From Acidobacteriota bacterium (GTDB taxonomy: Bacteria; Acidobacteriota; UBA6911), in the NCBI GenBank assembly GCA_965249005.1, contig CBDFLD010000011.1, positions 8,303 through 72,302 on the forward strand: 64,000 nt of DNA, read 5' to 3'. The notes beneath the pieces were generated by a model. That model saw nothing but the letters and a program-made list of their open reading frames with translations, was not told where the DNA came from and did not search any database. Both the position numbers and the translations under genes were made by a program. Positions 21,264 through 56,069 of the stretch are shown here, one piece after another (within the stretch, counting starts at the first letter, position 1; every line of letters begins with the position of its first letter).

Positions 21264-22322
21264 TCACGAATCCGGTGGCTTGGACTTCCGGATCTTTTTT
21301 TCAATATCGGCCAGGGTTCGGCTCATCGAATCAAGTTGCGCTTTGAACTGGGGAAGCCGGCCGAAGAGAGCGTTCAGACGCTTGAATTCCCGAAGCGGTC
21401 TCACCGGCACTCCCCAGTAGACTTCGCCCCCCCTGACGATTTTCCCGGGAAGGACGCCCGCCTTGGAACCGATGACTACACCTTTTTCGACCCGCGCATG
21501 ATCTCCGAAGCCAACCTGACCCCCGATCACCGCACAGTCCTCGATGATGGTGCTTCCGGATATTCCCGTCTGCGCCGCAATAACAACATGCGACCCGATT
21601 CGAACATTGTGGGCGATCTGGACGAGATTGTCGATCTTGCTTCCGCGACCGATTCGGGTCATACCGAGGGAGCCGCGATCAATCGTGGTATTGGCGCCCA
21701 CCTCGACGTCGTCTTCAATGACGACACTCCCGACCTGAGGGAACTTGACCTGCCGGTCGCCGTCGAAGACATATCCAAAACCGTCTCCTCCCACGACCAC
21801 GCCCGCTTGAAGCACCACTCGATCGCCGAGCGTCACCCCCGGGCAAAGCACCACTCGGGGGTGGAGCACGCATCCCTCTCCGAGTACACAGTTGTCTCCA
21901 ATCACGACCCCGGCATGCAGAACGGACCCGGTTCCGATCCGGACTCCATGCGCGACCGAGCACCACGCGCCGATCTCGACCCCGTCGTCTATTTCGGCCC
22001 CCGAAGAAACGTCGGCTGTGGCATGACGCAAGGGCCGCGCGACGGGTTGCGGGTGCACGAGAGCGGCAGCGCGGGCAAAATCGAGTTTTGGAGCCTCCGA
22101 AATGATCGCGTTCCACTCGGCGTGGACCAACTTCGCGGTGGTCACGATACACCCGGCGGTCATGGCGTCGGGGAGGACCACCTTCCGTTCTTCAGCGTCG
22201 AAAAAGACCAGGGACGATCGATCCGAGTCGTCCAGACTCGAAACCCTGGAGATTTCCAACTGACCGTTGCCTTGGTGCGGCAGATCCAACACAGAAGCCA
22301 GTTCCGAAATGGTATAAGACAT
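21264..22322 (-). CDS. lpxD: UDP-3-O-acylglucosamine N-acyltransferase
   Basis: N-terminal LpxD domain ([14 protein letters not shown]...), a long run of hexapeptide repeats, and a C-terminal helical tail. Confidence 0.9.
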
Positions 22323-22704
22323 CGTTTGGTGCGCTCGCGAAAAATTGTCCCGACGCTCGACGCTTCACTGTATCAAATTGGCGACGTTTGCAATAGCGCG
22401 TCTCTGTCAAGTGCCTGGGTTTCCCGTGGACCCCCAAATGGCAAGGAGCCACCCTCTCGAGCTTTTTGGCTGCGCTGTTGGTGAGGCCCGGCTGCATGGG
22501 TGGATGAAAGTGCAGCCGGGATCCAGGGGAGGTGTTCGTAGATCCAGCAATGCCGACGCCATCAACAATCGGAGACCGAGTCACGGAACAGCTGCGACCA
22601 CAGCCGATGCCACGCGTGGACCGCCGCACGATCGCCAAATACTCCGGGGAAAAGTCGGGTGGTTGCGGTCCGTGCCCGGCGACATCCCCCCCGATCGAGC
22701 CGCG

Positions 22705-23046
22705 TTATCCGATTGCCTCCTTTCCCCGCTCGCCCGTCCGGATTCGAACGCAGTCGGGAAGATCCAGGACAAAGATCTTCCCATCTCCGATATTGCCGGT
22801 ACGGGCCCCCGCTATGATCGCATCGATCGTCGGTTCGACGAAGTCGTCATTGACGGCTATTTCGACCCGCACCTTCTTGAGGAGGTTGATCGTGTGGATC
22901 ACACCGCGGTAGGCCTCCGTGTATCCCTTCTGTTCTCCGGCTCCCACGACAGTCGTGACCGTCATCTTGTGAACCTCTGCATCGAAGAGGGCTTGTTTGA
23001 CGTCGGGCAGTTTGTGAGGCTGTATCATAGCCACAATCATTTTCAT
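22705..23046 (-). CDS. glnK: Nitrogen regulatory protein P-II
   Basis: [48 protein letters not shown]...[20 protein letters not shown]. Lies directly downstream of the ammonium transporter gene. Confidence 0.95.
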
Positions 23047-23124
23047 TTCGCTTCCCTTCCGTCCTGGTGCGAAAGCCTACGAGGCTGGCAGCACCACGGC
23101 AGTCTTAGTGGTCTCTGGTCAGAA

Positions 23125-24462
23125 TCAATCAGTGGTAAAGATCTGGAATCCTGAGTATGCCTCCATCGCATGCTCTCCAATGTCCAATCCCTTGTGTTCC
23201 TCATCCTGAGAAACACGAATGCCGACGAGCACTTTGATCACCCCGAATATTAGAAAGGCGGCCGCGAACGTCACGACACCGTATGCGGCAATACCCGTAA
23301 GCTGGTTCATCAGCGTGTGCTCCGCATTGAGACTGAAGATGCCGACCGCCAGCGTGCCCCAAATACCACAAACGAGATGAACGGAGATCGCACCCACGGG
23401 ATCATCTATCTTCAGTTTGGCGTCGATAAAGATCACCGATGCCACGACGAGCACCCCGGCGATGAGTCCAATGACAACCGCGGCCATAACGGAAACGGTA
23501 TCGGCACCTGCCGTGATCCCTACCAGACCGGCGAGGCAGCCGTTTAACGCCATGGAGAGGTCAGGTTTCCTCTGAATCATCTCGGAAGTAAGGTAGGCGG
23601 CGATGATGCCCGCGGCCGCGGCAAGACAGGTAGTTACCAGGGTCCGGGAAACGGCGCCCGGATCGGCCGACAGGACCGAGCCTCCGTTGAAACCAAACCA
23701 CCCCAGCCACAGTAGAAAGACTCCGATCGTGGCCAAAGGCATGTTCGATCCGGGAATGGCATTGACGCTTCCCTGCACGTACTTGCCGATCCTCGGCCCC
23801 AGAAGAATCGCACCAGCCAGAGCGCCCCATCCCCCTACGGAGTGCACTAGAGTCGAACCGGCGAAGTCATAAAACCCCAACTCGTCGAGCCATCCACCAC
23901 CCCACTTCCAGCTTCCGACCAGCGGGTAAACAATTCCAACAAAAAGGGTCGTAAAGACGAGGAAACTCGGAAGCTTGATGCGGCCGGCGACCGCTCCCGA
24001 GACAATCGTGGCGCCAGTGGCGGCAAACATCGCCTGAAAAAGGAAATCAGTCCAGTAAGTGTAGGCGCCATCGGCATACTCGATCAAACCGGCGGCTCCC
24101 TCCGGCGATGAGATCCCGAAGCCGGAAAAACCGAGCCATTTTCCAAGGACCCACGCGTCGCCGGGGTACATCAAGTTGAATCCACACAAGGCGTAGGTCA
24201 GTAGTCCGATGGCCACGATCATCGTGTTCTTGAACAAGATATTGACGGTGTTTTTCGACCTGGTCAGGCCAGCCTCCAATGTGGCGAAGCCCAGGTGCAT
24301 GATAAACACCAAAAACGTCGAAACCATCATCCAGGTGTTGTTGACCATGAACATCGCCTCAGCGGCTGCGTTGGTTTGGGCATAAGCGTACGAGGCCCAA
24401 ACAAGCCCGATGGACAAAAAGGTTGCCAGACGTAACCTCCGCGTTAGACAGACTCCCAGCAT
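23125..24462 (-). CDS. amtB: Ammonium transporter (Amt family)
   Basis: 445-aa polytopic protein with Amt motifs (DFAGSTLVHSVGGWGALAGAILLGPRIGKY, GFNGGS, AISVHLVCGIWGTLAVG). Confidence 0.95.
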   Translation of the reverse strand: MLGVCLTRRLRLATFLSIGLVWASYAYAQTNAAAEAMFMVNNTWMMVSTFLVFIMHLGFATLEAGLTRSKNTVNILFKNTMIVAIGLLTYALCGFNLMYPGDAWVLGKWLGFSGFGISSPEGAAGLIEYADGAYTYWTDFLFQAMFAATGATIVSGAVAGRIKLPSFLVFTTLFVGIVYPLVGSWKWGGGWLDELGFYDFAGSTLVHSVGGWGALAGAILLGPRIGKYVQGSVNAIPGSNMPLATIGVFLLWLGWFGFNGGSVLSADPGAVSRTLVTTCLAAAAGIIAAYLTSEMIQRKPDLSMALNGCLAGLVGITAGADTVSVMAAVVIGLIAGVLVVASVIFIDAKLKIDDPVGAISVHLVCGIWGTLAVGIFSLNAEHTLMNQLTGIAAYGVVTFAAAFLIFGVIKVLVGIRVSQDEEHKGLDIGEHAMEAYSGFQIFTTD

Positions 24463-24582
24463 CCGTTCTCCTTCTCTGTAGGTATTGAGATAGTTTTTAG
24501 AATCGGAATATTCGGCAAACTCGCACCAACTCGGATCGAGCTCGGGGTCCCCCCCGACATGCGCAACAGATGCCCGCTGCGC

Positions 24583-25602
24583 CTAGAAGGCCAGACTGAG
24601 CGTGACCCCACCCCAGACCGTATCGGCAAAGCCGGCCGGAGTTCCCGCAGTCCCCAAATGAACGGCGCGCGGGTCTCGGAGCTGGTGGTTCCGGAATTCG
24701 CCCAGCAACGCACTGTAGGACAAAAACGGGCCCAGCCACCATTGCTCTTTAATCGTCAGCGGAAGGCTGATCGTGAAGTTGAAGTCGTGCGCACCTGACT
24801 CGGGGGCACCGTAGAAGAAATCTCCGAAACCCGAATTTGCAAAAGCTATGTAGCCTGAGAAATCCAGGGATTGGAGAATGCTTTCGCCAAGGGGGATCGA
24901 GTGGCTGGCGCCCAGAGTGAAGTAAACCCCGGTGGTGCCACCATTGTTGCGGCTTTCATCGACGTCGACGTAAAGCGTGGCAGCAGGGGCGAGCGGTACC
25001 GAATCGAGGCTTATCCCCCCGTAAATCTCGGTTGTTGACGGTAGTGAGACCGCACGATCGGGGAAGGCATAAGTGATGGTGCCGACATCGATCGACACAT
25101 TCTCGAAGGAGTGCGCGTAGGAAAAGACATAGTTGAGCTCGGTGAACTTCCCCTTGAGTCCGGAATGATTCCCGGCAGGCGCGCCTGGATTCTCCGGCAA
25201 GAACAGAGAATCCCCTTCATTTGCAGCCGTCAGGTCCACTGTTCCCCACGCGTTGAAGGAGAACCCACCAATTCCAACGGTCGCTGACGGCTGAAGGCTC
25301 CAATCGTTCGTCGCTCTCTGGCCACGCCAGATGTACTTGCTTGCCAGCGCCATATCGCCCGCGAAAGTATAGATCGACGGGGGGCTTGCCACCGGAACTT
25401 TGCCCTGATCTTGCTCTTTGTCTTTGCCGAAGGCCGGCCCGGAAAAGCAGAATAGAGAAATGGACAAGAGAGACAGCACGATTGAGCGGGGCCCTTCACG
25501 GATCCTCCTCCTTGAAAGCGCACGGAACGCGTGCGGGGTTGAAAAGAAGTACTCTTCAGTTAAATGCAATCTCCGTGCCAGTCCCTCTCGATACACGCGC
25601 AA
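24583..25602 (-). CDS. Putative outer-membrane beta-barrel porin (TorF/Gcw_chp-like), first gene of the amt-glnK operon
   Basis: Signal-like SIVLSLLSISLFCFSGPAFG, then alternating beta-strand pattern (ASKYIWRGQRATNDWSLQPSATVGIGGFSFNAWGTVDL), ending ...GGVTLSLAF. The true start must be downstream of the sigma-54 promoter at 25565-25580 (SD AAGGAGGAGG at 25504-25513), so the N-terminal ~33-41 codons of the ORF-track model are probably not translated. Confidence 0.6.
   Translation of the reverse strand: MRVYREGLARRLHLTEEYFFSTPHAFRALSRRRIREGPRSIVLSLLSISLFCFSGPAFGKDKEQDQGKVPVASPPSIYTFAGDMALASKYIWRGQRATNDWSLQPSATVGIGGFSFNAWGTVDLTAANEGDSLFLPENPGAPAGNHSGLKGKFTELNYVFSYAHSFENVSIDVGTITYAFPDRAVSLPSTTEIYGGISLDSVPLAPAATLYVDVDESRNNGGTTGVYFTLGASHSIPLGESILQSLDFSGYIAFANSGFGDFFYGAPESGAHDFNFTISLPLTIKEQWWLGPFLSYSALLGEFRNHQLRDPRAVHLGTAGTPAGFADTVWGGVTLSLAF
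25565..25580 (-). promoter_or_regulatory. Sigma-54 (-24/-12) promoter, perfect consensus TGGCAC-GGAGA-TTGCA on the minus strand
   Basis: The plus strand reads TGCAA TCTCC GTGCCA. Lies ~50 nt upstream of the SD of the porin-amt-glnK operon, whose amt-glnK genes are a classical sigma-54/nitrogen regulon target. Confidence 0.8.
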
Positions 25603-25625
25603 TACGACAGGAATCTATATATATT

Positions 25626-25890
25626 ATTGTATAACAATGACTTATTAGATATCTTGCCCACCGACAAGGGGCACAGCGGCACCGAGTTCTATCTACATTT
25701 ATGTATGATCATGGCAATGATGCATACATTATTGTATTAGGAATGGGCAATAACTCTAGAAGGAAACCAAGATGGGTCCGAGGACGGCCAAACGGGGAAG
25801 GGGAATTGGTTCTTCTCTAAACAATAGAAAAAAACAGACACTAAACTATAAATTCTAAAACGCTTATAGTATATATTACAAATTTGTAAT
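25626..25890 (-). promoter_or_regulatory. AT-rich upstream activating region with several inverted repeats and an IHF-like site
   Basis: ATTGT-ATA-ACAAT (25626-25638); IHF-like TAACAATGACTTA (25632-25644); TACA-TTTA-TGTA (25694-25705); ATCAT-GGCA-ATGAT (25707-25720); ATACA-TTAT-TGTAT (25724-25737); perfect 16-bp palindrome ATTACAAATTTGTAAT (25875-25890). Confidence 0.45.
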
Positions 25891-25984
25891 TTTATTCATC
25901 TTTTAGTACGATATTGTAACTCTGAGCATCCCAGTGCAGTCCCCCGCCTCGAAACCCAATGGGGGGGGCGCAAGCCAATGCGGC

Positions 25985-27556
25985 TCAACCCCGGAATCGG
26001 GAGCAATCGATGCTATATTTATCGACCTTGTACCCGATGACCCGCTCCGTGGTTTCGAGCAGTCTAGCTGCCTTGGCACGATTACCACGGGTCGTTTTCA
26101 AAGCATCCAGGATGAGGTCCTTTTCATAGGTGGCAACCGATTCGGTCAGAGAAATCCGCATGACGGTTCCGGATGCCTCCGCCGTTTGAAGCGTGGGGGG
26201 CAAATGGTACCCGTGGATCACGTGACCATCGCAAACCAGAACTGCTCTTTCAATCGTGTTCTCGAGCTCGCGGACATTGCCGGGCCAGTGATAACTCATC
26301 AACATGTCGATTGCCGGCGTGGAAATGCGCATGATGTTCTTGCGGTGCTCCGACGCGTAACGGTTGAGAAAGTGGTCCGCCAGAAGCAGGATATCCGGCT
26401 TTCGCTCCCTCAGAGGAGGAAGGAAAATGGTAAAAACATTGAGGCGATAGTACAAGTCCTCCCGAAAAGTCCCTTGGCCCATCGCTTCTTCCAGATCCTT
26501 GTTCGTTGCCGCCACAAGTCGAACGTTGACCTTGATCGTTTCCGTGCCGCCGACGCGCTCAAACTCCTGCTCCTGAAGAGCCCGCAATAGCTTGACCTGC
26601 GTCAGAGGCTCCAATTCCCCGATCTCATCAAGGAATAGAGTTCCCCCATCGGCCATGTCGAAACGTCCTGGTTTCCGCGACTGGGCATCGGTGAACGCTC
26701 CTTTCTCATAGCCGAACAACTCTGCCTCGATCAAACTTGCCGGCAGTGCGGCGCAGCTCACCTTGACAAAGGGCTTCTTCGCCCGAAGTGAATTGTAGTG
26801 AAGCGCATGAGCGATCAGTTCCTTCCCGGTTCCGGACTCCCCGCGAATCAGCACGGTGGTGTTCGTCCGGGCCACCCGGGCAACGTGCTCGTAGACCTGA
26901 TTCATGGCACTGCTGGTTCCGATGATATGGGAGAAGTCGTATCGACTCTCGAGTTCCTCCTGTAGGTGAATGTTCTCTTCAAGAAAGCGGTTCCTCTCGG
27001 ACTCTACCAGACGACTGGTCTGAATTGCCTGGGCGATCATCGACGACACGACATTGAGGAATTTGAGCTCTTCCCCGTAATCGCGGGTTTTGACAAAGGA
27101 AAGGTCAATACTCAACGCCCCCGCCTTTTCACCCTTGATCAGGATCGGCACGCATATGAAGGTAAGCTCTTGCTTGGCAAGCTCCTTTCGCTCATCGGCC
27201 CGACTCAGAAAGAGGGGCTCGCGGCTGATCTGCGGAATAACGAGCGGCCTTCCGCTTTCCACCACCATCCCGGTGATTCCTTCCCCCAAATTGTAACGGA
27301 CACGGCGCCCCTTCAGGGTGAGACCGTTCGCTGCTTCGATGTGAAGTTCCCGGGTTTCCGGGTCCAGCAATGTGACGGCGCTCCGAATCGCCCCGTGATA
27401 CCGCTCGAGGACTTCCAAGACGCGATGCAGCGACTCTTTGAGATTCAGTCCGTCCGTCAGAATCTGGCTTACGCGGGCGAGAGCCCCGAGAACGTCTTCC
27501 TGGTGATCAGCTCGCGCCACCGCGTGCTTGCCTGGTCCGACTCGCTTGCTCCGCAT
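25985..27556 (-). CDS. Sigma-54-dependent transcriptional activator, GAF sensor + AAA+ + Fis-type HTH (NifA-like architecture)
   Basis: GAF-like N-terminus, [19 protein letters not shown] (Walker A), GAFTDA loop, [12 protein letters not shown]-terminal [29 protein letters not shown]. Confidence 0.9.
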
Positions 27557-27606
27557 TATCCTTGATTCCCGACAAATTTGTAGCCTATAGAGGCAAATCC
27601 TACCAA

Positions 27607-27612
27607 ATTATA
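27607..27612 (-). promoter_or_regulatory. Possible sigma-70 -10 hexamer (TATAAT on the minus strand) about 50 nt upstream of the activator gene
   Basis: The plus strand reads ATTATA. No convincing -35 element. The palindrome ACAAATTTGT (27572-27581) lies between it and the start codon. Confidence 0.3.
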
Positions 27613-27772
27613 CCGAAAAATGCCGGGCCCGGCGTGAAGGAAATCGCAAAGCCGGAAGTTCCCCGGCCTGCACGATAGTGAGCTTTATAGCGAGAGTGCG
27701 GGGAGACCGCCCCCTCCCATGGAAGCGGAAAATGACTGCAATGCTGAAATCAGGGGTAGCCCCGCAAAGCCG

Positions 27773-29737
27773 TCAAGGGGCTTTGACAGAAGCGATAATC
27801 TCTTTGTCTTCTTCCGACAAGGCCAAGTTGTCGTTGCAGCAGTTCGCCTCCGGTTGGTTCGTCAGGACTGGAAGAAACAACTCATGCTCGTCATTCCCCA
27901 GCCCGACCTCCTTCCCTTTTGCAAATATCTCATGGCGACCCTTTTCACGGTGCCATTCCCCAAGCGTGGCCGTTTGATGCATATTTTCGATGATCTGGCG
28001 CCAGCCGACGCCGGTGTTGTAGGCACAGAAGGATATCTCGCCTTCCTGAGTCCCATATGGAATCACGCACATTTCCGTTCGACGAAAGTCATAGGTCCAA
28101 AGATCTTGAAACCACATTCCCTCCACGCAAAGCACCCGCCATTCGTCCTGTTCCGAACGGGTCTGCATCCGGTCGTTGCGGTCGCTGTCGGACCGATCCG
28201 AGGTCGGTTTGAACAGGTTGAGGATCTGCGATATGGGAAAGTTCTTGGGCGCCTGGTCCGCCTTGTAGTTGCGCATTACCGAAAGGGACAGCTGAAAAGC
28301 GGTAAGCGATCTTCCACGAGCGGTATCCGTGATGATGGCCACGTCTCGAATGAACTGTTCGTAATCGAAGAACTTAAACAGTGGGGTGCATTCGCTGGTG
28401 CTGCGGTTGACAACCAGCAGGCTGAATATGCCGCAGTTTGGGTGGCAGTTGCAGGCGCTCCAACCCCACGGGGCTTCCGGGCCCTGCATGATATCCATGA
28501 CGCTCGTGAAGGCACTGTAGGAAGAAAGCGGAAACCAATCGCGCATTGGCTTCCAATCGACCTCGAGTTGCTGCTGGAGCTCTTGGGTCATCTGAGACAG
28601 GGTGTACCGCTGCGAGGCTCTCGTTTCGTCGTCGATTTCTTCATCCCTTCCTGTAAAGGAGACCGGCTGAAACGCGATCGTCTGCACCTTGTCGATGTTT
28701 TTGGCCGCGAACTCGACAATCGGGCCGATACCGTCGTTGTTGATGCCGTTGACGATCGTCGTGACAAGGGTCGTTTTCATGCCGACTTTCGCCATGTTTT
28801 CGATGGCGCGCAGTTTGACGTCGAGTAAGTTTCCTACCCCGCGGTGTTCATTCTTCTCGTTGGTCACGCCGTCGAACTGAAGGTACGCGCCATGTAGGCC
28901 CGCCTCGTACGCCTCTCGGGTGAACTCTTCGCTTTGCGCAAAGCGTATTCCATTCGTTGCCGCCATGAGCCGGTAGAAACCGATCTTTTTGGCATATGCC
29001 ACGGCTTCCAGAAAAAAAGGCGAGAGCGTGGGCTCCCCGCCCGAGAACAAGATGATGATCTGCCGGCGCGGCTTGAAAGAAATCGCGCGATCCAGGATCG
29101 CTTTGATGTCATCGAATTCTGGTTCGTGGACATAGCCAACTTGATTGGCATCCATGAAACAAGGGTTGCACATCATATTGCAACGGTTGGTCAAATCCAC
29201 TGTCAGAACCGCTCCGCGGCCATACTGGATCGAGGAGGTCCCATGTTTGTGAACCTCTGCATCCTCGGCGCTGCGAAAATCGCGCCCAAAGAAGAGGCCT
29301 TCGATACGTCGGGTGAAATCGGCATCGGTGGAAAGGGTGTCCTGGAATGATCCATGGGTTGGACACTCCTTGCGCATGAGCACCTGACCGTCTTCCTCTA
29401 CGATTTGCGCCTTGATCTCCCCCGGGTGACTGTCGGCAAGCACTGAGAGGTCGACTTCGCCACGAATGATGGAGCTCCGGACCTCGGGTACGCATTTGGG
29501 ACAAAGAGAGTCGGTGACACGAGGAAGGCCAAGCGGTGGTGCCGTTCGTTCATGGCTCTTGAGCATCCTACCGGGCGCCCACTTGGGTGTTGGAAGTTCG
29601 CCTTCTCCGATCCGAGTGTTCAGTGCCTGGAAGAGTTTCCAGGTCAGCCCCGAAAGCTCCGACACGATCGTCGAGCCTGTCCATTTCCGAAGCAGCTTGT
29701 TTGGTCCTTCGTCTCGCACCATGTGATCGGTATACAT
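27773..29737 (-). CDS. Radical SAM enzyme of the tetraether-lipid synthase (Tes / GDGT-MAS, MJ0619-type) family
   Basis: Rubredoxin-like SLCPKCVPEV...MRKECPTHGSF, radical SAM LTNRCNMMCNPCFMD, downstream Cys motifs SACNCHPNCGIF and RTEMCVIPYGTQEGEISFCAYNTGVGWR. I recognise this overall layout from the MJ0619-type family. Confidence 0.7.
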   Translation of the reverse strand: MYTDHMVRDEGPNKLLRKWTGSTIVSELSGLTWKLFQALNTRIGEGELPTPKWAPGRMLKSHERTAPPLGLPRVTDSLCPKCVPEVRSSIIRGEVDLSVLADSHPGEIKAQIVEEDGQVLMRKECPTHGSFQDTLSTDADFTRRIEGLFFGRDFRSAEDAEVHKHGTSSIQYGRGAVLTVDLTNRCNMMCNPCFMDANQVGYVHEPEFDDIKAILDRAISFKPRRQIIILFSGGEPTLSPFFLEAVAYAKKIGFYRLMAATNGIRFAQSEEFTREAYEAGLHGAYLQFDGVTNEKNEHRGVGNLLDVKLRAIENMAKVGMKTTLVTTIVNGINNDGIGPIVEFAAKNIDKVQTIAFQPVSFTGRDEEIDDETRASQRYTLSQMTQELQQQLEVDWKPMRDWFPLSSYSAFTSVMDIMQGPEAPWGWSACNCHPNCGIFSLLVVNRSTSECTPLFKFFDYEQFIRDVAIITDTARGRSLTAFQLSLSVMRNYKADQAPKNFPISQILNLFKPTSDRSDSDRNDRMQTRSEQDEWRVLCVEGMWFQDLWTYDFRRTEMCVIPYGTQEGEISFCAYNTGVGWRQIIENMHQTATLGEWHREKGRHEIFAKGKEVGLGNDEHELFLPVLTNQPEANCCNDNLALSEEDKEIIASVKAP

Positions 29738-29882: not shown

Positions 29883-30437
29883 TCATGCTAAAGTCTTGAT
29901 TATTAGGAAGGTTTCGATCAACAAGAAACCGATCAGGGTCCTGTGCTCGCCGTTGTGCGTGACTCGTGACCAGCGAAAGATCGATGTCAACCGGGCCTCG
30001 GCCGTGCGGTTGCGGGAAAAACGGGGGAAGAAGATCGGCACCTCCTGTCGGTATTCCATGAACTTCGATCCATATCCAGACAGCAGTTCTGCTTCTTCCG
30101 CCTTCATGACCGGGTAGTAGAAGATTGCAAAAAAGACTCCAAAGGGAACGAGCAGCCAGAAAGCCTGACCGGCTGCTATGACGCCAATGGCCATGAAGAG
30201 CGATCCCAGATAGAGCGGGTTTCGAGAGCAAGCGTAGGGCCCACCCTTGGTCAAGGCCTTTCCCTTGTCGATGTGCCCGGACGCCCACAAGCGCAGGAGC
30301 ACCCCCACAACGGCCACTGCGCCACCGACCGATAGGGAACGCCAGGAGGGTCGCATCAGGATCAAAAACACGATTCCGATCACGGTGCCGACCGGCACCC
30401 GGAGCCTCTGAGCAAGTTTGCCCCAAGACTTCATCAT
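29883..30437 (-). CDS. Membrane methyltransferase, ICMT/PEMT (isoprenylcysteine carboxyl / phospholipid methyltransferase) family
   Basis: Polytopic. The LTKGGPYACSRNPLYLGSLFMAIG motif is typical of the family. ATG 30437 (MMKSWGKL...) is preferred over the ORF-track start at 30545, which would overlap the upstream gene. Confidence 0.75.
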   Translation of the reverse strand: MMKSWGKLAQRLRVPVGTVIGIVFLILMRPSWRSLSVGGAVAVVGVLLRLWASGHIDKGKALTKGGPYACSRNPLYLGSLFMAIGVIAAGQAFWLLVPFGVFFAIFYYPVMKAEEAELLSGYGSKFMEYRQEVPIFFPRFSRNRTAEARLTSIFRWSRVTHNGEHRTLIGFLLIETFLIIKTLA

Positions 30438-30462
30438 CGCGACTCGATTCGATAGAGGCGAA

Positions 30463-32472
30463 TCAACCGCGCGCCGGCTGCATGGTCGTCCGCTCACGTG
30501 TAAAGGGTTGTGCCAGCCACTTTTTAGCTTCTTCCTGGGCCCCAAACGTCTCGTCTTTAGTATTGGCGGCCTTGTTGTACTCGGCCAAGGCGCGCTGACG
30601 CTGTCCCAAGATGTCGTAGACTTTACCGAGATAAATGTACGACCAAACTTCGATCCAAGCTGGTTCCCGGTCTCCGTTCAGAGCGTCCCTGAAAGAGTTG
30701 GCGGCAGCCTGCAGGTTGAATTGTTCCCAAAAGACCTCAGCCAGTCGAAAGTGGGCCAGGGACTTGCGCGCGTTGAGTTGTATGGCCTCCTCATAGGCCC
30801 GAATTGCATCGATGAATTGCTCTTTTTCCTTGTAGTCATCTCCCCGAGAGATCTGGACCGTAGTCTGGAGCTCCCTGGAATCGCGCAAAATCTTGTTGTC
30901 TGGATCGATGGTAACCTTGAGCGGCATCGAGAAGGTGTTCATATCGAAGGCCGCTGATTTTCCCCTCAGCTCGATCTCTGTCTTCTTTGTTCCATCCTTC
31001 GTCTCGACTTCGATTTCAATCGGCATGCGGAACAGATCTCGGTCCTGGGAGACGCTCCCGGAAATGCGAAACCCATCCACAGTTTTGAAAACGATATACT
31101 CCGTATCCAATTCCGGAACCCCGATTGTGTCCACCCACTCGGCCACGAACCACGCCAAACTTTCACCGTGAATCTCCTCGGCAAGCTGGCGAAAGTCCGC
31201 CGTTGACCCTCCCGACTCGGCGAAGCGGGCGATGTATTCTCGCTGCAACTGGTTGAAATTGTCCTCCCCGAGAATGGGCCGGAGCATATTGAGAATCCAG
31301 GCCCCCTTGCCGGCAACGACCGATTCGTAGTCCTCGGTGCGGTAGCCAAGCCCGACGCCCACGCGGACGGCGCTCTTGCTCTCGGATTTTAGCCCCAGCA
31401 CAGCAAGCTGGCTGACCTCGTCTGCAAAAGCCTCTTCTCCCCCAACCGAGCCAAGATAGAGCGCAGCCGAAAAATAAGACATCCCATCGACGAGCCAGAG
31501 ATCATCCGGACTCCTGGGGGTAACGGTTTCTCCCCACCATTGATACGCCGCCCGGCGGGCCAACCAACGTGAGTCCGGCTCCGTTGCGGATAGCTCCTTG
31601 TTGGTGACAAATACGGTTCCCAGAGTGCCGGGGTGCATCCGCACACGATCATCGACTTCTACCAGACGAAACGACTTTCCCGCCGCCGCGGGTCCGAATG
31701 ATTCGGTGTAGAATTGCAAGATCTCCGCCAGAACTTCTGCCGACTGCTCGATCGCATCCAGGTGCCGCTCCTCGGCCAGGCAGGTAATCGTGACGTCTCC
31801 GAGTTGGACCTCCTTCTCGAAGTATCGGCCGGCAACCACGGATCCGCTCAGAATCGGCTTTCCGGAGCCCCAGCTAAAACTCTCCGTGATTCCCTTGGTC
31901 ACGACGTTCAGCTGGTTGCCCGGACCCACGACGGTCATGCCAAGCGGGACTGTAATCTCGAAATCAACCACTACCCGATCAGCCAGGAAACCACTTACCG
32001 GGAACCATTTGGCCAGAAAAAGCAGGTACGTTCCCTCCATTCCGATATACGCACTCGATTCATCCCTCGCGTAGAGGCGGCTGAATTGGTCCCTGTCGAA
32101 GCCCCCTTCGTATTCCATCTTTATCGTCTTGGCAATCCCGGGATCGAGCGGCGCGCCGAAGCGGAGCGCGAGAAGGCCAGGACCCGAATCACCCTGCCCG
32201 AATTCGATTTCCACCCCCTCGCTGTCCAGGATTCGCCTCACCGAGAGATTCTCGCTTATCTCGAACACTACTGTTTCCGTGGCCTCGAGCGGTGTGAACA
32301 CGACCTCGGCAACCGCTTCCAGTTCGTGGTCCTCGGGCATGAGCTCAGCCTGAACCTTGAGCTGGTCCACCCGAATCATCGGCCTGGATTGAGAATAGGA
32401 ATGATGGCCGACGGAAAGCAAGAGAGCTAGCAAGAGCAGCGGTCTCATACTCGACATTTTCCCCGACTCCAT
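30463..32472 (-). CDS. Secreted M1-aminopeptidase-like protein with degenerate active site and C-terminal TPR repeats
   Basis: Signal peptide MSSMRPLLLLALLLSVGHHSYSQ. M1 homology HPGTLGTVFV...LARRAAYQWWGETVTPRSPDDLWLVDGMSYFSA, where GAMEN has become GTLGT and HExxH has become RRAAY. TPR-like C-terminus (AIRAYEEAIQLNARKSLAHFRLAEVFWEQ..., YIYLGKVYDILGQRQRALAEYNKA). Confidence 0.75.
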   Translation of the reverse strand: MESGKMSSMRPLLLLALLLSVGHHSYSQSRPMIRVDQLKVQAELMPEDHELEAVAEVVFTPLEATETVVFEISENLSVRRILDSEGVEIEFGQGDSGPGLLALRFGAPLDPGIAKTIKMEYEGGFDRDQFSRLYARDESSAYIGMEGTYLLFLAKWFPVSGFLADRVVVDFEITVPLGMTVVGPGNQLNVVTKGITESFSWGSGKPILSGSVVAGRYFEKEVQLGDVTITCLAEERHLDAIEQSAEVLAEILQFYTESFGPAAAGKSFRLVEVDDRVRMHPGTLGTVFVTNKELSATEPDSRWLARRAAYQWWGETVTPRSPDDLWLVDGMSYFSAALYLGSVGGEEAFADEVSQLAVLGLKSESKSAVRVGVGLGYRTEDYESVVAGKGAWILNMLRPILGEDNFNQLQREYIARFAESGGSTADFRQLAEEIHGESLAWFVAEWVDTIGVPELDTEYIVFKTVDGFRISGSVSQDRDLFRMPIEIEVETKDGTKKTEIELRGKSAAFDMNTFSMPLKVTIDPDNKILRDSRELQTTVQISRGDDYKEKEQFIDAIRAYEEAIQLNARKSLAHFRLAEVFWEQFNLQAAANSFRDALNGDREPAWIEVWSYIYLGKVYDILGQRQRALAEYNKAANTKDETFGAQEEAKKWLAQPFTRERTTMQPARG

Positions 32473-32481: not shown

Positions 32482-33633
32482 TCACAGATAACTCGCTACC
32501 ATTCTAGCAGCTGTTTCTGTTGCGGGCTGACGCCCGAGCGTCTCCCGAACGATCGCCAGATCGGAACAGAGCTGCGCGGCTCTCTGCGCATCCGAGAGTA
32601 TCTCCACGGAAACACGGCTCAGCGACTCGGCCGTTGCGTCCCCCTGCATGAACTCTGGCACGATTTCCTTTCCCGCGATCAAGTTTACCAGCCCTTTGAA
32701 AGGGCTACGAATGAGAATGTTACCGATGAACCAGCTCAAAGACGAAATCTTATACACGATGATGAAAGGGATCCCGACCAATGCGGCTTCCACGGTACTG
32801 GTTCCGCTCTTGACGATGGCAAAATCCGAGTTGCCCAGTACCACCTTGGTGTCCGTGCTTACGATCTTGAAGTATAGCGAGTTTGGATTCCCACCCAGTA
32901 TCTCGTTTGCCATCCCGCGGATCTGTCCCAGATCCAGCGACGGAGCCGCGGAGATCAAGAACTGGCAGGGAGTCACACGGAGGATCTCGAGCGATGCCCG
33001 CAGCAGGGTAGGCAAGATATACTCTACCTCTCGGCTCCGACTGCCCGGGAGAAGCGCTATCGTTTTGCGGCTGGGATCCAGATTCAGGTTTTGTAGAAAT
33101 TTCTTTCTGTCCAGCGTGCCGCCAAAGTCCTCCTCGAGAAGTGGATGACCGACGAACTCCACGTCGATTCCGCAGCGCTTGTAGAAATCGACCTCGAAAG
33201 GAAGAATGACCAGCATCTTGTCCACGTAGTCTCGAATAATCTTCACTCGCCCTCTGCGCCAAGCCCAAATCTGCGGGCTAATGTAGTAGATCACTTTCAC
33301 GCCCATGCGTTTCAGTTTTTTGGCCAGCCGGAGGTTGAACTCAGGGAAATCGAGCAATACCGCCAAGTCAGGAGGCTCCTCGACGGCCTTGCTCAAGATG
33401 GCGTGAAACACTTCGAGGTAGGTGCCGAAGTGGCGGAGGGCTTCGCGGGGCCCAATACTTGCGAGCTTCGAGATATGGCACAGGAGATGGACGCCGGCGG
33501 CCTCCATCTCACCGCCGCCGGTACCAAAAAACTCCAACGGCTCCGCGCAATAGACCGATTTCAGCCTGTGGACCAGGCGAGCCCCGTAACGGTCTGCTGA
33601 AGCCTCTCCTACGACAATCAGGACTCGTTTCAT
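32482..33633 (-). CDS. lpxB: Lipid-A-disaccharide synthase
   Basis: MKRVLIVVGEASADRYGARLVHRLK ... YYISPQIWAWRRGRVKII ... are LpxB motifs. ATG 33633 abuts the mnmA stop. The ORF track starts at 33654. Confidence 0.9.
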   Translation of the reverse strand: MKRVLIVVGEASADRYGARLVHRLKSVYCAEPLEFFGTGGGEMEAAGVHLLCHISKLASIGPREALRHFGTYLEVFHAILSKAVEEPPDLAVLLDFPEFNLRLAKKLKRMGVKVIYYISPQIWAWRRGRVKIIRDYVDKMLVILPFEVDFYKRCGIDVEFVGHPLLEEDFGGTLDRKKFLQNLNLDPSRKTIALLPGSRSREVEYILPTLLRASLEILRVTPCQFLISAAPSLDLGQIRGMANEILGGNPNSLYFKIVSTDTKVVLGNSDFAIVKSGTSTVEAALVGIPFIIVYKISSLSWFIGNILIRSPFKGLVNLIAGKEIVPEFMQGDATAESLSRVSVEILSDAQRAAQLCSDLAIVRETLGRQPATETAARMVASYL

Positions 33634-34760
33634 AGATCGTGGCGCGCGATCCACCCGCCACCCACCACCGTCTCCTCTTGATAGAAGACGATCGCCTGAC
33701 CAGGAGACACGCCGTGCTGGGGTGTATCGAACACTACCTCCAAGCTTCCGTCGCCGCAGGGGGTAATGACAGCCGGCGACTCCTGGTGACGGGAACGAAT
33801 CTTGGCGTGGGCCTCAAACGGCCCTTGGGGTGGGGAAATCGCAATCCAGTTTGGGTCAATCACCCGGCAATCCAAACGGCTTACGCCCGGCCGCTCATCG
33901 ACGACGACCCGGTTTGCCTCGGGCTGAATCTCGACCACGTAGAGAGGTGCGGAATGAGCGATACCCAGCCCTCGTCGCTGGCCGACGGTGTAGCGATGGA
34001 TGCCTTGATGTTTTCCCAGCACCCGGCCCGATCTGTTCACGATTGGCCCTGGCGGAAACGGATCGTTCCCGGTGTCGCTGGAAACATCCCGATAGTGGCG
34101 CTCGATGAAATCGGCGTACTTGCCGTCCGGAACAAAACAAATCTCCTGGCTTTCGGGCTTGTCGGCGACCTCGAGCCCTTGTTGTCGGGCGATGCCTCGG
34201 ACCTGCTGCTTCTTCATCCCGCCCAACGGGAATACAGCCTTGGACAGCTGTTGTTGGGTCAGCCCAAACAGAAAATAGGATTGATCCTTTTCCGTGAACA
34301 CCGCCTTCTGGAGCAGATACCGTCCCGTGCCCCGATCCAAGGCAACCTGGGCGTAATGCCCTGTCGCCACCCGTTGGGCATCCACTTCATCGGCAATCTT
34401 CATCAGATGGTCGAACTTCATGCGCGAGTTGCAGAGCACGCACGGAGAAGGAGTCCGACCGGAGCGATAGTTCTCGATAAAGTCTCGTACCACTGTCTGG
34501 GCAAACTGTTTCTGAAAGTTCACCACGTAGTAAGGAAACCCCAGATGAGAGGCGACGGCGCGGGCGTCGTAGAGATCGTCGAGCGAGCAACACTTCCCAG
34601 CAACCGGTTCGTTCCCTGAAGAGACCTGGGCCGTTTGGTCCCACAACTGCATAGAAAAGCCAACCAAGTCGTAACCCTGCTCCTTGAGGATAGCCGCGGC
34701 GACGGAGCTATCCACACCACCACTCATTGCCACTGCGATGCGAGTGGACTCCCCAGTCAT
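33630..34760 (-). CDS. mnmA: tRNA 2-thiouridine(34) synthase
   Basis: IAVAMSGGVDSSVAAAILKEQGYDLVGFSMQLW (PP-loop) ... CCSLDDLYDARAVASHLGFPYYVVNF ... ATGHYA. Confidence 0.95.
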   Translation of the reverse strand: MTGESTRIAVAMSGGVDSSVAAAILKEQGYDLVGFSMQLWDQTAQVSSGNEPVAGKCCSLDDLYDARAVASHLGFPYYVVNFQKQFAQTVVRDFIENYRSGRTPSPCVLCNSRMKFDHLMKIADEVDAQRVATGHYAQVALDRGTGRYLLQKAVFTEKDQSYFLFGLTQQQLSKAVFPLGGMKKQQVRGIARQQGLEVADKPESQEICFVPDGKYADFIERHYRDVSSDTGNDPFPPGPIVNRSGRVLGKHQGIHRYTVGQRRGLGIAHSAPLYVVEIQPEANRVVVDERPGVSRLDCRVIDPNWIAISPPQGPFEAHAKIRSRHQESPAVITPCGDGSLEVVFDTPQHGVSPGQAIVFYQEETVVGGGWIARHDL

Positions 34761-36542: not shown

Positions 36543-37016
36543 TCCGATGGGCTTTTCGTCATTGTTCGCCTACGGACCAGCAACGATCCCTTGCAAGTGC
36601 TGCCCGTGGGCGCCCCTTCCCCTTCTTACACGTCTTGTTACACTGCAAACGGCGTGCCAGATATTAGCTTCGGAACGTTATGATCTGCAAATTATTGATT
36701 ATATTGTAGTTATAATGTTGCCGGGAATAAATGCAGAACACGATTCTGCTGAGTCGGCAGATCCGAACTGTCCAACAATTGGACAATCCCCAATGATTCT
36801 TTCTAAAGGACTGAAGAAGCGGTGTTTAGAAGTGTAAAGACCCAGGATAGTGGGATGCCAGCATTTCCTACAGTGATTGCCCAGAAGGGACAGTTGAAAA
36901 GTTCGGGACTGAACAAAAAGAGGACTGAACAAAAAGGGACATCTCCTCCAAGTTTCCAAGCTTCCTGGAATGGATCCCGCGAAAAACCGTGGCGGGGGGA
37001 GAGGGACGTCCCCGAT

Positions 37017-38428
37017 TCAGCGCTGGGACATCCGTTTTAGCTTTTCGATCAACGCCTGCCGGCTGATCCCCAAATTTCGCGCCATCCGGGACTTGTTGTT
37101 TTTGAACTGGCGCATGGCGTTGCCGATCATTTCCTCTTCCAATCGTTGGATTGCAACTTTCATGTTACCGTCCGGCCCCCTCGGCGACCCGGCAAGCTGG
37201 CGAATGTGGTCCGAAAGCAATTCTGGTCCGAGGGGCTTTCCCGGTTCGGCCAGCAGGACCATGCGCTCGATCTCGTTTTGCAGCTCTCGCACGTTGCCAG
37301 GCCAGGCGTAGGATTCCATAAAGCCTTGGGTCTTCTCTAGTAAGGGACCAACTCTTCGGTTCAACTTCGAACAAAACTGTGAGAGAAAGAACTCGGCCAG
37401 CGGAGCAATATCTCCTGTACGCTCGCGCAGCGGGGGAATCGTGAGTGAAAAGACATTGATGCGAAAAAAGAGATCTTGTCGAAAGCGTCCGGCTTCAACT
37501 TCGGCTTTCAGGTCCCGGTTCGTTGAGGCGAGAATCCGCACGTCGACCTGCCTGGGTTGATGATAGCCGAGCGGCATGATTTCACTTTCCTGAATCACCC
37601 GCAAGAGCTTGACCTGAAGCTCGGCCGGCGCCTCTCCGATCTCATCCAGGAATATCGTGCCCCCATGTGCCATTTCGAAAAATCCCTTTTTTCCTGCATG
37701 GCGCCCGTGAACGCACCCTTCGCGTGTCCGAAGAACTCACTTTCAACAAGGTCGCGGGGAATGGCTCCGCAGTTCACCGGGATGAAGATCTGACCTGGAC
37801 GATTGCTATCATCGTGGATATAGCGGGCGATCAGTTCCTTTCCCGTTCCGGTCTCCCCTTGAATGAGGACGGTGGTCTCAGTCGCCTTGACCCGGTCCAA
37901 GAGCCGCAAGATGTTCTCCATCTCCGGGCTGCCGTAGACGATGTTTCTGGGCCGGACTTCCTTTTCGACTTCCCGCCGCAGAATGATATTCTCGGTCAGC
38001 AGGCGGTCATGCGCCTGCTTTAGCTCCGCGGCCAACCGCTCGTTCTCGCGCTGCAGTTCCTTCTTCTCGAGGGCCTCCCGCACCGCCATCCGCAGATCCT
38101 CGGGCTCCCACGGCTTGGTGATGTACTTGTGCACCTTGCCCATATTGATTGCAGCAATCAGGTCGTCGACCTCCGTAAATCCTGTGAGCACGATCCGGAC
38201 CAGATTGGGATACTCCCTCTGCGACAGCTCCAGGAACTCGATCCCGGTCATATTGGGCATCTTCTGATCCGTGATGATGACATCAACGGTGGTGCGCTTC
38301 AGGATATCGAGCGCTTCCTCGCCCGATTGAGCCGTAGACACTTCGTAGTGGTCCACGAAAGTCCTCTGTAGCTTCTGCAGGTTAGCCATCTCATCGTCGA
38401 CCAGCAGGAGTTGGTATTGCTTCGTCAT
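37017..38428 (-). pseudogene. Sigma-54-dependent response regulator (REC + AAA+ + HTH) interrupted by a 1-nt frameshift in an A6 run
   Basis: ORF 37595-38428 carries REC and AAA+ up to [14 protein letters not shown]. ORF 37017-37673 continues [16 protein letters not shown]...HTH in another frame. One extra A in the run at 37687-37692 (T6 on plus) restores [29 protein letters not shown]. Confidence 0.85.
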
Positions 38429-40566
38429 TTGCCGGGTCCTTCCTGGACGACGGGTAGCCGAACCGTGAAGACACTCCCTTTCTCGGCTGTGCTGTTCACA
38501 TGAATCTTACCCTGATGCTGCTCGATGATCCCGTAGCTGATACTCAATCCGAGCCCGGTCCCGTGTCCTACAGGCTTGGTGGTAAAGAAGGGCTCGAAGA
38601 TACGCCTGAGGCTCTCCTTCTGAATTCCGCTGCCACTGTCTTCGATTTCAATCTCTACCGTGCCGTTCGCCGATCGAGTTCGAATCCAGACTTCGCCGTT
38701 TCCCTCGATCGCTTGAAAAGCGTTCAAGAGCAGATTCATGAACACTTGGCCCAGCTTTCCCGAATATCCTTGAATCGGGGGAATGGCCCCATAGTTCCGA
38801 TGAACCTCAATACGATTCTTGTATTGATTCCGCAGCAAGTTGAGGGACATGTCCAGGGATGCGTGCAGATCTATATCCGTCAGAGCATCAGCATCCATTC
38901 GAGAAAAAGTCCGCAGATCGGACACGATCGTGTTGATGCGTTCCGCACCTTCCGTAAAGTTGTCGATCAAGGTTGCGAGGTCTTCGCGAATGAAATCATA
39001 GTTCGCCCGTTCCTTCATCCCATCCAGCCGAGCTTTGTCTTCCGCCGATAGGCTGGGCAAAGAGTCAAACGCCTCGACCAGCGACTGCAGCTTCTGGCTG
39101 TAGTCGGCCAAGAAACCAGTATTCCCATAGATGAAGTTCAGGGGGTTCTTTATTTCGTGCGCAATTCCGGCTACCAACTGCCCCAGAGAAGCCATCTTTT
39201 CCGACTGCACCAACTGATCCTGCGTACTTTGAAGTTCGAGATATGCTTTCTTGAGCGCATCGTGGGATTCTTCCAGCTCCCGGGTGCGTACGCCCACCAT
39301 TTGTTCCAGGTTCTTGTTCAGCACCTGGAGCTGCTGCTCCCGTTCAGACAGAGACCGCGCCATGTCGTTGAAGGTGGATCCCAGAATCCCTACTTCATCG
39401 GAAGTGCTGATTCGAACTCGCTCCCGGAGATTCCCCTGGGCAATTGTACGGGCCGTTCGAATGAGATTGTTCAGCGGCACCGTGATTCCTTGTGCAATCG
39501 CGTAAGTGAACACGCTCACCAGACAGGCGGTCAACAAGGTTACGGCGATGAGCCACCATTTCATGTTCTCGATCGGCTTGAAAATATCTTCCGCATCGAT
39601 TCCAACCCCTACAATCCAGCCGAAACTGTCTTCGATAGGATGCAACCCGGACATTTTCGCGTTCCCCGCCGGAAAGTCATAGGCAAGGCTCGATTCACCG
39701 GCCAGAATCGCGTTGTGCAGACTTGTCAGACCGTGATCTTCGACGAGTTTACTTTGGTAGAGGTCCTGCCCGTCGTCTTCCAAAAAGGGGACATCCCCCG
39801 GGTAGCCGCGATTGGCTCGATACTTATGGGCGATGATTGTATTGGCATCTTTGCCAAACATGAAAGCGTACCCCGTGCGGAGGTCGAGCTCCCGCAAATC
39901 GGCTTCCACGCGGTCCAGGATATTCTGGAAATAGACCCAATTGACAACGGAGATCCAGACCCCCACGATTTCCATTGTTTCCGGGTTCCTCACCGGCTCC
40001 GAATAGGCTACATTGAATTGGTGACTGCGATCCTGCTGCTCGTAGTCGTAGAGAGTTGCAACGATGCTCGACTGGTACCAGTCGCTTTGAGAAGAGTGGC
40101 CTTTGATGGAATGATCAAACAGGCTGCGTTCCACACCGAATTCGGAGAGATCCGCGCCGAGCGTTGCGGATATGGTCTCCGCTGAAAACGGCGCGCCCAA
40201 GCGATCCATGTTGTTGATCGCAACGATCCTCCCCTTGGGGTCTCCGATGAGCAGCACGTCGTAGACTTCGTGGTCAAAACAATAGTTATTCAGCAGTCGG
40301 GTCATTCCCTGGCGGTTCCGCTCGGAAACAACCGGGTAGAAGAGCGAGAAAGTCGTGGCCATGGAATGAACCTCTTCTCTCTGCTCTCCCAGGACAAGAT
40401 CGATCTTGTCGGAGGTATCCTGCGCCATCTTCTCGAGCGACAGCTTGATCCGGTCTTCGGTAATCTGCTTACTCCCAATAAAATAGGAGAAAACGGAGAT
40501 CCCCACCAGCGGAATCAAGGAAAGGCTCATGGTCAAGGCGAACAGCTTCTCTTTCAGACTTCTCAT
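38425..40566 (-). CDS. Sensor histidine kinase (periplasmic Cache-like domain, HAMP, HisKA, HATPase_c)
   Basis: N-terminal TM, ~300-aa extracytoplasmic domain, second TM, HAMP, H-box AHEIKNPLNFIYGNTGFL, and G-box GHGTGLGLSISYGII. Its stop overlaps the RR start (ATGA). Confidence 0.9.
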   Translation of the reverse strand: MRSLKEKLFALTMSLSLIPLVGISVFSYFIGSKQITEDRIKLSLEKMAQDTSDKIDLVLGEQREEVHSMATTFSLFYPVVSERNRQGMTRLLNNYCFDHEVYDVLLIGDPKGRIVAINNMDRLGAPFSAETISATLGADLSEFGVERSLFDHSIKGHSSQSDWYQSSIVATLYDYEQQDRSHQFNVAYSEPVRNPETMEIVGVWISVVNWVYFQNILDRVEADLRELDLRTGYAFMFGKDANTIIAHKYRANRGYPGDVPFLEDDGQDLYQSKLVEDHGLTSLHNAILAGESSLAYDFPAGNAKMSGLHPIEDSFGWIVGVGIDAEDIFKPIENMKWWLIAVTLLTACLVSVFTYAIAQGITVPLNNLIRTARTIAQGNLRERVRISTSDEVGILGSTFNDMARSLSEREQQLQVLNKNLEQMVGVRTRELEESHDALKKAYLELQSTQDQLVQSEKMASLGQLVAGIAHEIKNPLNFIYGNTGFLADYSQKLQSLVEAFDSLPSLSAEDKARLDGMKERANYDFIREDLATLIDNFTEGAERINTIVSDLRTFSRMDADALTDIDLHASLDMSLNLLRNQYKNRIEVHRNYGAIPPIQGYSGKLGQVFMNLLLNAFQAIEGNGEVWIRTRSANGTVEIEIEDSGSGIQKESLRRIFEPFFTTKPVGHGTGLGLSISYGIIEQHQGKIHVNSTAEKGSVFTVRLPVVQEGPGK

Positions 40567-53658: not shown

Positions 53659-53676
53659 GCGGACACAGGGTTTGCA

Positions 53677-56053: not shown

Positions 56054-56069
56054 TAGAGCGCCCTACAGC

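Follow-up and report, generated by a model that had tools for sequence, protein, structure and literature searches.

Glycerol dialkyl glycerol tetraethers of the branched type (brGDGTs) belong to the terrestrial proxies most often used for temperature and pH, and to our knowledge the chain-joining enzyme of the aerobic Acidobacteria has not yet been demonstrated. Here, we describe a candidate for such a role encoded on a 64,000-nucleotide stretch of an Acidobacteriota genome (assembly GCA_965249005.1, contig CBDFLD010000011.1; hereafter the window, in whose own numbering positions are given), namely a 654-residue radical S-adenosylmethionine (SAM) protein related to the archaeal tetraether lipid synthase known as Tes or GDGT-MAS.

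The closest described system is GDGT-MAS itself, an enzyme with four metal sites, one of which is the radical SAM cluster (PMC9433317; PMC13459092). Briefly, a rubredoxin-like iron site is formed by C9X2C12X20C33X2H36 and an N-terminal [4Fe-4S] cluster is bound by C73, C77, C80 and a histidine, and the active site also binds ester-linked bacterial phospholipids (PMC9433317). The C-terminal [4Fe-4S] cluster is held by three cysteines and a labile methionine, Met439, and forms a carbon-sulfur intermediate with the substrate (PMC9433317; PMC13459092).

That bacterial relatives might act in a comparable way is not a new idea. Zeng et al. (2022) listed 456 bacterial Tes homologues and proposed them for brGDGT synthesis, with identities to MA_1486 of 42% in Koribacter, 40% in Solibacter and 32% in Edaphobacter aggregans, and an earlier reading of the window made from the letters alone (the sequence-only reading) was right that acidobacterial homologues had been put forward for this role (PMC8941075). 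Halamka et al. built a pathway for Solibacter usitatus on its two Tes homologues (PMC10087280), and Chen et al. (2025), as cited in PMC13023045, described a correlation in which iso-diabolic tetraesters go with a Tes homologue alone (Koribacter) and brGDGTs with Tes plus Ger (Solibacter). Iso-diabolic acid is reported from acidobacterial subdivisions 1, 3, 4 and 6, and Sahonero-Canavesi et al. identified Mss and Ger in anaerobes and found no mss homologue in Acidobacteria (PMC13159169). In the literature we found no description of a Tes clade without the N-terminal cluster, nor of a linkage to lpx genes; what is new here is the definition of such a subfamily and its association with lipid A genes.

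Family, fold and metal-site ligands

The 654-aa open reading frame (ORF) announced by the sequence-only reading is real and lies on the minus strand (Table 1), a point which that reading had omitted; it starts with ATG, with a GGAG about 9 nt upstream. Pfam recognises Radical_SAM (PF04055, residues 182-344, E 3.3e-19) and Zn_ribbon_HMPTM (PF23545, residues 73-136, E 2.1e-13), and the best NCBIfam model is that of Tes (NF045702; E 2.7e-91, model positions 2-483 of 486). The profile relationship to Tes therefore stands as regards the best family, matched over nearly the full model, but not as regards equivalence, as the score of 306.6 bits falls short of the curated whole-protein cut-off of 450 bits for the NF045702 equivalog. 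No other radical SAM subfamily, an outcome that the sequence-only reading had allowed for, gives a better match than Tes, whose C-terminal domain is included in the alignment.

Among solved structures, the sole whole-chain match by sequence and by fold is GDGT-MAS (7TOL/7TOM). The sequence aligns to 7TOL at 31% identity (E 1.7e-65, query 108-597 against chain 36-513), and an AlphaFold2 (AF2) model built from a 39-sequence alignment (mean pLDDT 83.7, pTM 0.85) finds 7TOM with Foldseek at E 1.8e-41 and a target-normalised TM of 0.89, and 7TOL likewise. The next Foldseek matches in the PDB (SkfB, MoaA and viperin) involve the radical SAM core alone (E ~1e-9), and the predicted fold follows GDGT-MAS over the whole chain, including its C-terminal lipid-binding domain. 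Alignment and model together make homology to Tes secure along the full length, the C-terminal lipid-binding and cluster domain included.

The same family matches have to be weighed for a non-lipid substrate, as would suit a pterin C-methyltransferase (the label '7,8-dihydro-6-hydroxymethylpterin dimethyltransferase') or a TrsS-like or peptide-modifying radical SAM enzyme. The Zn_ribbon_HMPTM name and the JGI product names that suggest the former both derive from the original annotation of MJ0619, whose pterin methylase activity could not be reproduced and in which a long, hydrophobic channel for lipids forms the active site (PMC9433317); with HMPTM the window protein shares only the PF23545 domain name. 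TrsS (NF045646) does come second among the NCBIfam matches with 207.8 bits, but over residues 107-392 only (model positions 13-296 of 441) and far under its cut-off of 490 bits over the full model. As family searches of the window also found no methanopterin or pterin, selenoprotein or precursor-peptide genes nearby, a non-lipid substrate seems highly improbable.

Metal ligands were assigned from alignment and conservation, rather than from coordinates, in a set consisting of the window protein, MJ0619, 28 diverse representatives and 80 orthologues from other species genomes, the latter being the best 80 of 575 stretches encoding a relative in GTDB one-genome-per-species contigs, on which all orthologue and locus counts rest. 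Each motif quoted by the sequence-only reading was found, namely C79-P-K-C82, C125-P-T-H128, C186-NMM-C190-NP-C193, C429-N-C431-H-PN-C435-G and the last cysteine cluster, M556-C557-VIPYGTQEGEISF-C571-AYNTGVGWR. The first two make up a rubredoxin-like CX2C...CX2H site, the knuckle of which has an insertion of about 22 residues relative to MJ0619 (a spacer of 42 residues against 20), and C186, C190 and C193 form the CX3CX2C motif of the radical SAM cluster. By alignment, C435, C557 and C571 are the counterparts of the first, second and third cysteine ligands of the C-terminal cluster ([4Fe-4S]C) and M541 of the labile Met439, these residues falling at the conserved HxxCG, RC, FC and M439 positions, respectively, so that the set of three cysteines and a methionine is present.

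All 80 orthologues keep C79, C82, C125, H128, C186, C190, C193, C429, C431, H432, C435, M541, C557 and C571, and 76 of them C537; across the superfamily alignment C186, C190, C193, C435, M541, C557 and C571 are at least 90% conserved. The conserved cysteines of the protein are not a matter of chance. Judged by these ligands, three elements of the published mechanism are retained: the [4Fe-4S] cluster that cleaves SAM, the [4Fe-4S] cluster of the C-terminal domain with its three cysteines and labile methionine, and the rubredoxin-like iron.

What the alignments indicate to be missing is the surface N-terminal [4Fe-4S] cluster ([4Fe-4S]N). In a comparison with MJ0619 and 22 canonical representatives, the site of its motif contains no cysteine and is about 10 residues shorter than in canonical Tes, reading 'EVHKHGTSS' in place of 'CPxxCGxCxxH', such that no CX3CX2C with its histidine is found there. 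The consensus of the window protein and its orthologues at this point is (E/H/Q)VH(K/R)HG(T/S/N)S, and CPxxCGxCxxH is absent from all 80 of them and from the entire clade described below. The arrangement thus departs from the MJ0619 type to which the sequence-only reading had assigned it, as the CX3CX2C belonging to the auxiliary cluster at the N-terminus is deleted and two of the three cysteines of 'CNCHPNCG' are without counterpart in MJ0619. These two, C429 and C431, and also C537 are extra cysteines relative to MJ0619. That the three substitute for the lost cluster was considered and is not supported, as CxCHxxC also occurs in the canonical P0160 and P0170, which keep the N-terminal motif. 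The clade offers a natural 'minus N-cluster' variant for probing the role of this cluster in Tes.

The sister clade and its predicted reaction

When 1.84 billion cluster representatives were searched exhaustively with HMMER, 468 clusters matched at E <= 1e-30, and the neighbour-joining tree of full-length representatives falls into two clades. One, here called canonical, contains MJ0619 and retains the N-terminal motif, with three sporadic losses; its sister clade consists of the window protein, its orthologues and P0121, P0123, P0124, P0126, P0128, P0132 and P0140, all of which are without the motif. Canonical representatives score 474-645 bits against NF045702 and the sister clade 239-414 bits. 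Because the split between the clades coincides with the NCBIfam cut-off, the window protein is, as far as its sequence defines it, a Tes homologue and not a Tes equivalog.

The sister clade is mostly found in Acidobacteriota, and the orthologue group of the window protein was counted in more than 575 species genomes. The best 80 of the 575 stretches encode proteins of 68-78% identity and are all from this phylum, from the classes Terriglobia (Candidatus (Ca.) Acidiferrales, Ca. Versatilivoraceae and other lineages) and Blastocatellia (Pyrinomonadaceae, Blastocatellaceae and Chloracidobacterium), and one relative-bearing contig carries the label Acidimicrobiia. Among the species genomes, the nearest protein has 78% identity, and a 99%-identical protein is present in an ENA assembly. 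Identities of 68-80% across classes point to strong purifying selection.

Two individual sequences deserve separate mention. P0429, which shares 92% identity with a Blastocatellia orthologue, comes from a 6.99-Mb contig deposited under the name 'Leptolyngbya sp. 7M'. The contig probably represents the genome of an acidobacterium that accompanied a cyanobacterium in non-axenic culture, in which case the gene has a culturable carrier. In P0123 (561 aa, a 50% cluster representative of 53% identity), 'NKQPDLV...' replaces the CX3CX2C and the C-terminal cysteine pattern is kept, so that the protein is degenerate or a pseudo-enzyme, unless the sequence is an artefact of assembly.

Because fold and ligand set match, we extend the Tes mechanism to bacterial chains, and judge it somewhat likelier true than false that the enzyme joins bacterial lipid chains tail to tail through radical C-C bond formation to give membrane-spanning lipids of the iso-diabolic acid type. 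SAM would be cleaved at the radical SAM cluster, hydrogen would be abstracted from the terminal carbon of a lipid chain and the radical captured on a sulfide of the C-terminal cluster, after which a second SAM would activate the second chain and the two carbons would be joined by a C-C bond. The expected product is an iso-diabolic-acid-type C30 chain, which would constitute a membrane-spanning tetraester or, after ester reduction, the core of a brGDGT. The proposal of the sequence-only reading that the gene may encode a synthase of brGDGTs or membrane-spanning lipids is in this respect partly supported by Tes homology and fold, but the protein is not an equivalog and the idea had already been published.

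A number of observations weigh against tail-to-tail coupling by this protein. It scores under the Tes cut-off and lies in a separate clade, and the Koribacter and Solibacter correlations probably concern canonical-type homologues (40-42% identity to MA_1486) and not the clade at 31% identity. Papers from 2025 and 2026 describe the role of bacterial Tes homologues as still unconfirmed, none having been assayed (PMC11868695, PMC13459092), and of 14 acidobacteria that produce iso-diabolic acid, only 3 had a Tes homologue under strict thresholds (E <= 1e-50, at least 30% identity; PMC13159169). The clade sits near this cut-off (31% identity to MJ0619, E 1.7e-65) and such surveys can therefore miss it, so missed members may contribute to the low count. 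The ether-lipid genes that the sequence-only reading had suggested looking for are not there either, as family searches found no elb, agps, plsA/ger or mss-like gene in the 64-kb window. Among the top 120 matches of the protein searches, all of them MAG or unnamed sequences, no subfamily member came from a named cultured strain whose lipid profile is known. The only named cultured strain found with a homologue is Terriglobus roseus, and its protein (DSM 18391, WP_014786616; P0124, at L084 9001-10875) has lost all three cysteines of the C-terminal catalytic cluster; the neighbouring genes encode a TrwC relaxase, two integrases and a TraG/TrwB coupling protein, surroundings which place P0124 within an integrative or conjugative element. 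P0124 is unlikely to be the iso-diabolic acid synthase of T. roseus.

The features that set the clade apart could also mean that the Tes fold serves a different lipid-chain chemistry, such as an intramolecular cross-link, the closure of a ring or some other C-H functionalisation, in which case a separate enzyme would make the membrane-spanning lipids. Besides the separate clade and the score under the equivalog cut-off, this would fit the altered cofactors (no [4Fe-4S]N, and the additional C429, C431 and H432, all invariant, and C537), and the loss or replacement of C-terminal cluster ligands in the P0124, P0128 and P0140 sub-branches indicates that chemistry varies within the clade. The two Tes homologues of S. 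usitatus (PMC10087280) leave room for divergent roles, and a second, small radical SAM gene lies near Blastocatellia loci. Every ligand needed for Tes coupling is nevertheless kept and invariant, the predicted fold superposes on the whole chain of GDGT-MAS, lipid-binding C-terminal domain included, and no specific alternative reaction is indicated by the evidence. We consider a different chemistry fairly unlikely and retain tail-to-tail coupling as the preferred reading.

Genomic neighbourhood and candidate substrates

The minus-strand gene order around the Tes-like gene is ECF sigma factor, hypothetical protein, mnmA, lpxB, M1 peptidase/TPR protein, methyltransferase, Tes-like gene, NifA-like activator, porin-like gene, ammonium transporter (Amt) and lpxD (Table 1). 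As the sequence-only reading had noted, lpxB belongs to the same strand block and the adjoining upstream gene encodes a membrane PEMT/ICMT-type methyltransferase. The only NCBIfam match of the latter is the lipid A 1-phosphate O-methyltransferase LmtA (TIGR04571; 47.6 bits against a cut-off of 325), and it is present in 4 of the 80 loci, occupying the same position in L001, L002 and L010. In the closest relatives, L001 and L010, gene order is otherwise the same but lpxD directly follows the Tes-like gene, from which it is displaced by 5.4 kb in the window.

Table 1. Features of the window discussed in the text, with positions numbered from its first letter
Feature	Positions	Strand	Basis
Tes/GDGT-MAS-like radical SAM enzyme gene, 654 aa	27773-29737	minus	ORF and translation, Pfam, NF045702, 7TOL, AF2, Foldseek
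Rubredoxin-like mononuclear Fe site, C79-x2-C82...C125-x2-H128 (putative)	29354-29503	minus	aligns with C9X2C12X20C33X2H36
Site of lost [4Fe-4S]N motif; 'AEDAEVHKHGTSSIQYG' in place of CPxxCGxCxxH	29219-29269	minus	alignments
Radical SAM cluster motif, C186-x3-C190-x2-C193	29159-29182	minus	PF04055; invariant in alignment
C429-N-C431-H432-P-N-C435-G	28430-28453	minus	alignments
C537, M541, C557, C571	28025-28129	minus	alignments
Nitrogen-control module, outside Tes-like unit	22323-27772	minus	family matches; synteny
NifA-like GAF/AAA+/HTH sigma-54 activator	25985-27556	minus	family matches
Gcw_chp/TorF-type porin-like gene	24583-25602	minus	family matches
Ammonium transporter (Amt)	23125-24462	minus	family matches
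Sigma-54 promoter, TGGCACGGAGATTGCA, perfect match	25565-25580	minus	upstream of porin/Amt pair
Membrane PEMT/ICMT-type methyltransferase, probable start ATG 30437	29883-30545	minus	PF04191, E 7e-7
Secreted M1-family peptidase with TPR repeats	30463-32472	minus	Pfam; same position in L001, L010
lpxB, lipid A disaccharide synthase	32482-33654	minus	TIGR00215, 257.7 bits, above cut-off
lpxD	21264-22322	minus	TIGR01853, 308.9 bits, above cut-off

The proximity to lipid A genes extends to two classes. In 8 Terriglobia species genomes lpxD lies 74-280 bp after the Tes-like gene on the same strand, and in 42 Blastocatellia genomes an lpxA-lpxD pair and the Tes-like gene are arranged divergently and have lpxB and lptD as neighbours; these counts come from phylogenetically clustered species and represent perhaps three independent arrangements, not 50 events. 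A close lpxD, within 8 kb, is found in 51 of the 77 loci with enough flank. Among the 26 without one are the Versatilivoraceae, which have a more distant lpxD-murJ pair about 4.5 kb upstream, with mobile and toxin-antitoxin genes in between. No lipid genes were seen in the loci of the more distant clade members P0121, P0126 and P0140 or of the canonical P0160.

That orthologues adjoin lipid A genes in both classes despite rearrangement brings in lipid A or its precursors as the substrate, whereby acyl chains of lipopolysaccharide (LPS) would be coupled or macrocyclised, or lipid A would be linked to an inner-leaflet lipid. There is an analogy in GDGT-MAS, which makes macrocyclic archaeol within one lipid, and the product here would be an outer-membrane-spanning or non-extractable lipid. 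Sinninghe Damsté and colleagues reportedly observed in 2011 that the iso-diabolic acid of subdivisions 1 and 3 is freed only by whole-cell hydrolysis and is unseen in Bligh-Dyer extracts, a non-extractable behaviour that LPS-bound acids would show. The linkage, however, fits any envelope-lipid function equally well, since clusters of lpx genes frequently include genes of general membrane biogenesis, and a further line of support, the LmtA match of the methyltransferase gene that precedes the Tes-like gene here and in the closest relatives, is weak and concerns a neighbour seldom present. To this may be added the loci without a close lpxD, literature searches in which no dimeric or dicarboxylic chains were found for any acidobacterial lipid A, and the documented occurrence of glycerol esters and ethers of iso-diabolic acid in Acidobacteria (PMC13274423, PMC10087280). 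A lipid A substrate is in our view distinctly improbable. A shade more doubtful still is the wider proposition that the Acidobacteriota-wide subfamily is a tail-coupling enzyme for lipid A or outer-membrane lipids, co-inherited with lpxD, lpxA, lpxB and lptD and producing cross-linked or membrane-spanning LPS-anchored chains; if true, such coupling would account for the non-extractable iso-diabolic acid pool and place part of brGDGT-precursor synthesis in an outer membrane pathway.

The GAF/sigma-54 activator next to the Tes-like gene was correctly identified as a neighbour by the sequence-only reading, but the association is incidental, as the activator is part of an inserted porin/Amt block. 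L001, L002, L009-L012 and L034 have no such block separating lpxD from the Tes-like gene, and its absence from the closest relatives, where lpxD comes directly after the Tes-like gene, identifies it as an insertion; its GC content is not anomalous. Control of the Tes-like gene by this activator was rejected because no sigma-54 promoter precedes the gene, a perfect one stands before the porin/Amt pair and the module is missing in the closest relatives. The Tes-like gene probably shares a transcript with the envelope genes that lie upstream of it (lpxB, M1 peptidase and PEMT/LmtA-like methyltransferase).

With TGGCAC-N5-TTGCA as consensus, the window contains three perfect sigma-54 matches, each just upstream of a gene start: the one before the porin/ammonium transporter pair, one before an ECF sigma factor (36644-36659, minus) and one before a type IV pilin (59456-59471, plus). 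The window encodes three or four sigma-54 activators. A sigma-54 response regulator with receiver, AAA+ and HTH_8 domains (37017-38428, minus) downstream of a HAMP histidine kinase (38425-40566), is split into the overlapping ORFs 37595-38428 and 37017-37673, a frameshift that reflects either a pseudogene or a sequencing error. A type IV pilus cluster at 51.9-60 kb (within 51922-62240) contains PilB, PilT, PilC, PilS/PilR-like regulators and a pilin.

Other lipid and envelope genes in the window are a GT9 heptosyltransferase (14500-15609) and plsY (13608-14228), which is ordinary and not an ether-lipid gene. A UbiA-family gene (50987-51919) was ruled out as an ether-lipid gene, being of the quinone type and MqnP/UbiA-like. 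In the Blastocatellia, 34 loci have a conserved 262-aa protein without family match downstream of the Tes-like gene, followed in 15 loci by a gene for a small (~320 aa) SPASM/NirJ-like radical SAM protein (e.g. L054 10680-11642, L041 10105-10893). In Ca. Versatilivoraceae (L003 10058-10870; L081-L083), a PhyH-family phytanoyl-CoA dioxygenase-like gene lies directly 3' of the Tes-like gene and a divergent class I SAM methyltransferase gene precedes it; either product could modify branched lipid chains.

The clade can be recognised by a simple marker, the missing [4Fe-4S]N motif. With an intact catalytic cluster and a conserved linkage to lipid A genes, it provides a concrete candidate with two distinguishable substrate hypotheses.

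Comparison with known systems

Of the systems with which the window protein can be compared, TrsS (NF045646) has in common with it a zinc ribbon and a radical SAM core, but there is no match in the C-terminal domain and the score is far under the cut-off. Mss of Thermotoga maritima and Thermoanaerobacter ethanolicus is closer in function, being a radical SAM enzyme that joins two fatty-acid tails to form diabolic or iso-diabolic acids, and is proposed to use the same cluster-assisted coupling as Tes (PMC13159169, PMC13459092). It is, however, only remotely related to Tes, occurs in anaerobes and has no acidobacterial homologue (PMC13159169), a separation that we draw from its description.

With GDGT-MAS MJ0619 of Methanocaldococcus jannaschii (7TOL, 7TOM), the predicted likeness covers the four-part fold, the rubredoxin-like site, the CX3CX2C of the radical SAM cluster and the ligands of the C-terminal cluster. 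At 31% identity, the window protein differs in having no N-terminal CX3CX2C/His motif, in the rubredoxin insertion of about 22 residues, in N- and C-terminal extensions of about 72 and 55 residues, respectively, and in the extra conserved C429, C431 and C537. Its host is also unlike the archaeon, being bacterial, with ester-linked fatty-acid lipids and an outer membrane.

The homologues of Ca. Koribacter versatilis and Ca. Solibacter usitatus would, judging by reported identities and E-values, fall in the canonical clade, with the N-terminal motif kept and the cut-off passed, whereas the window protein belongs to the sister clade. They are alike in superfamily, in phylum and in the role proposed for them in the synthesis of iso-diabolic acid and brGDGTs (PMC8941075, PMC10087280, PMC13023045).

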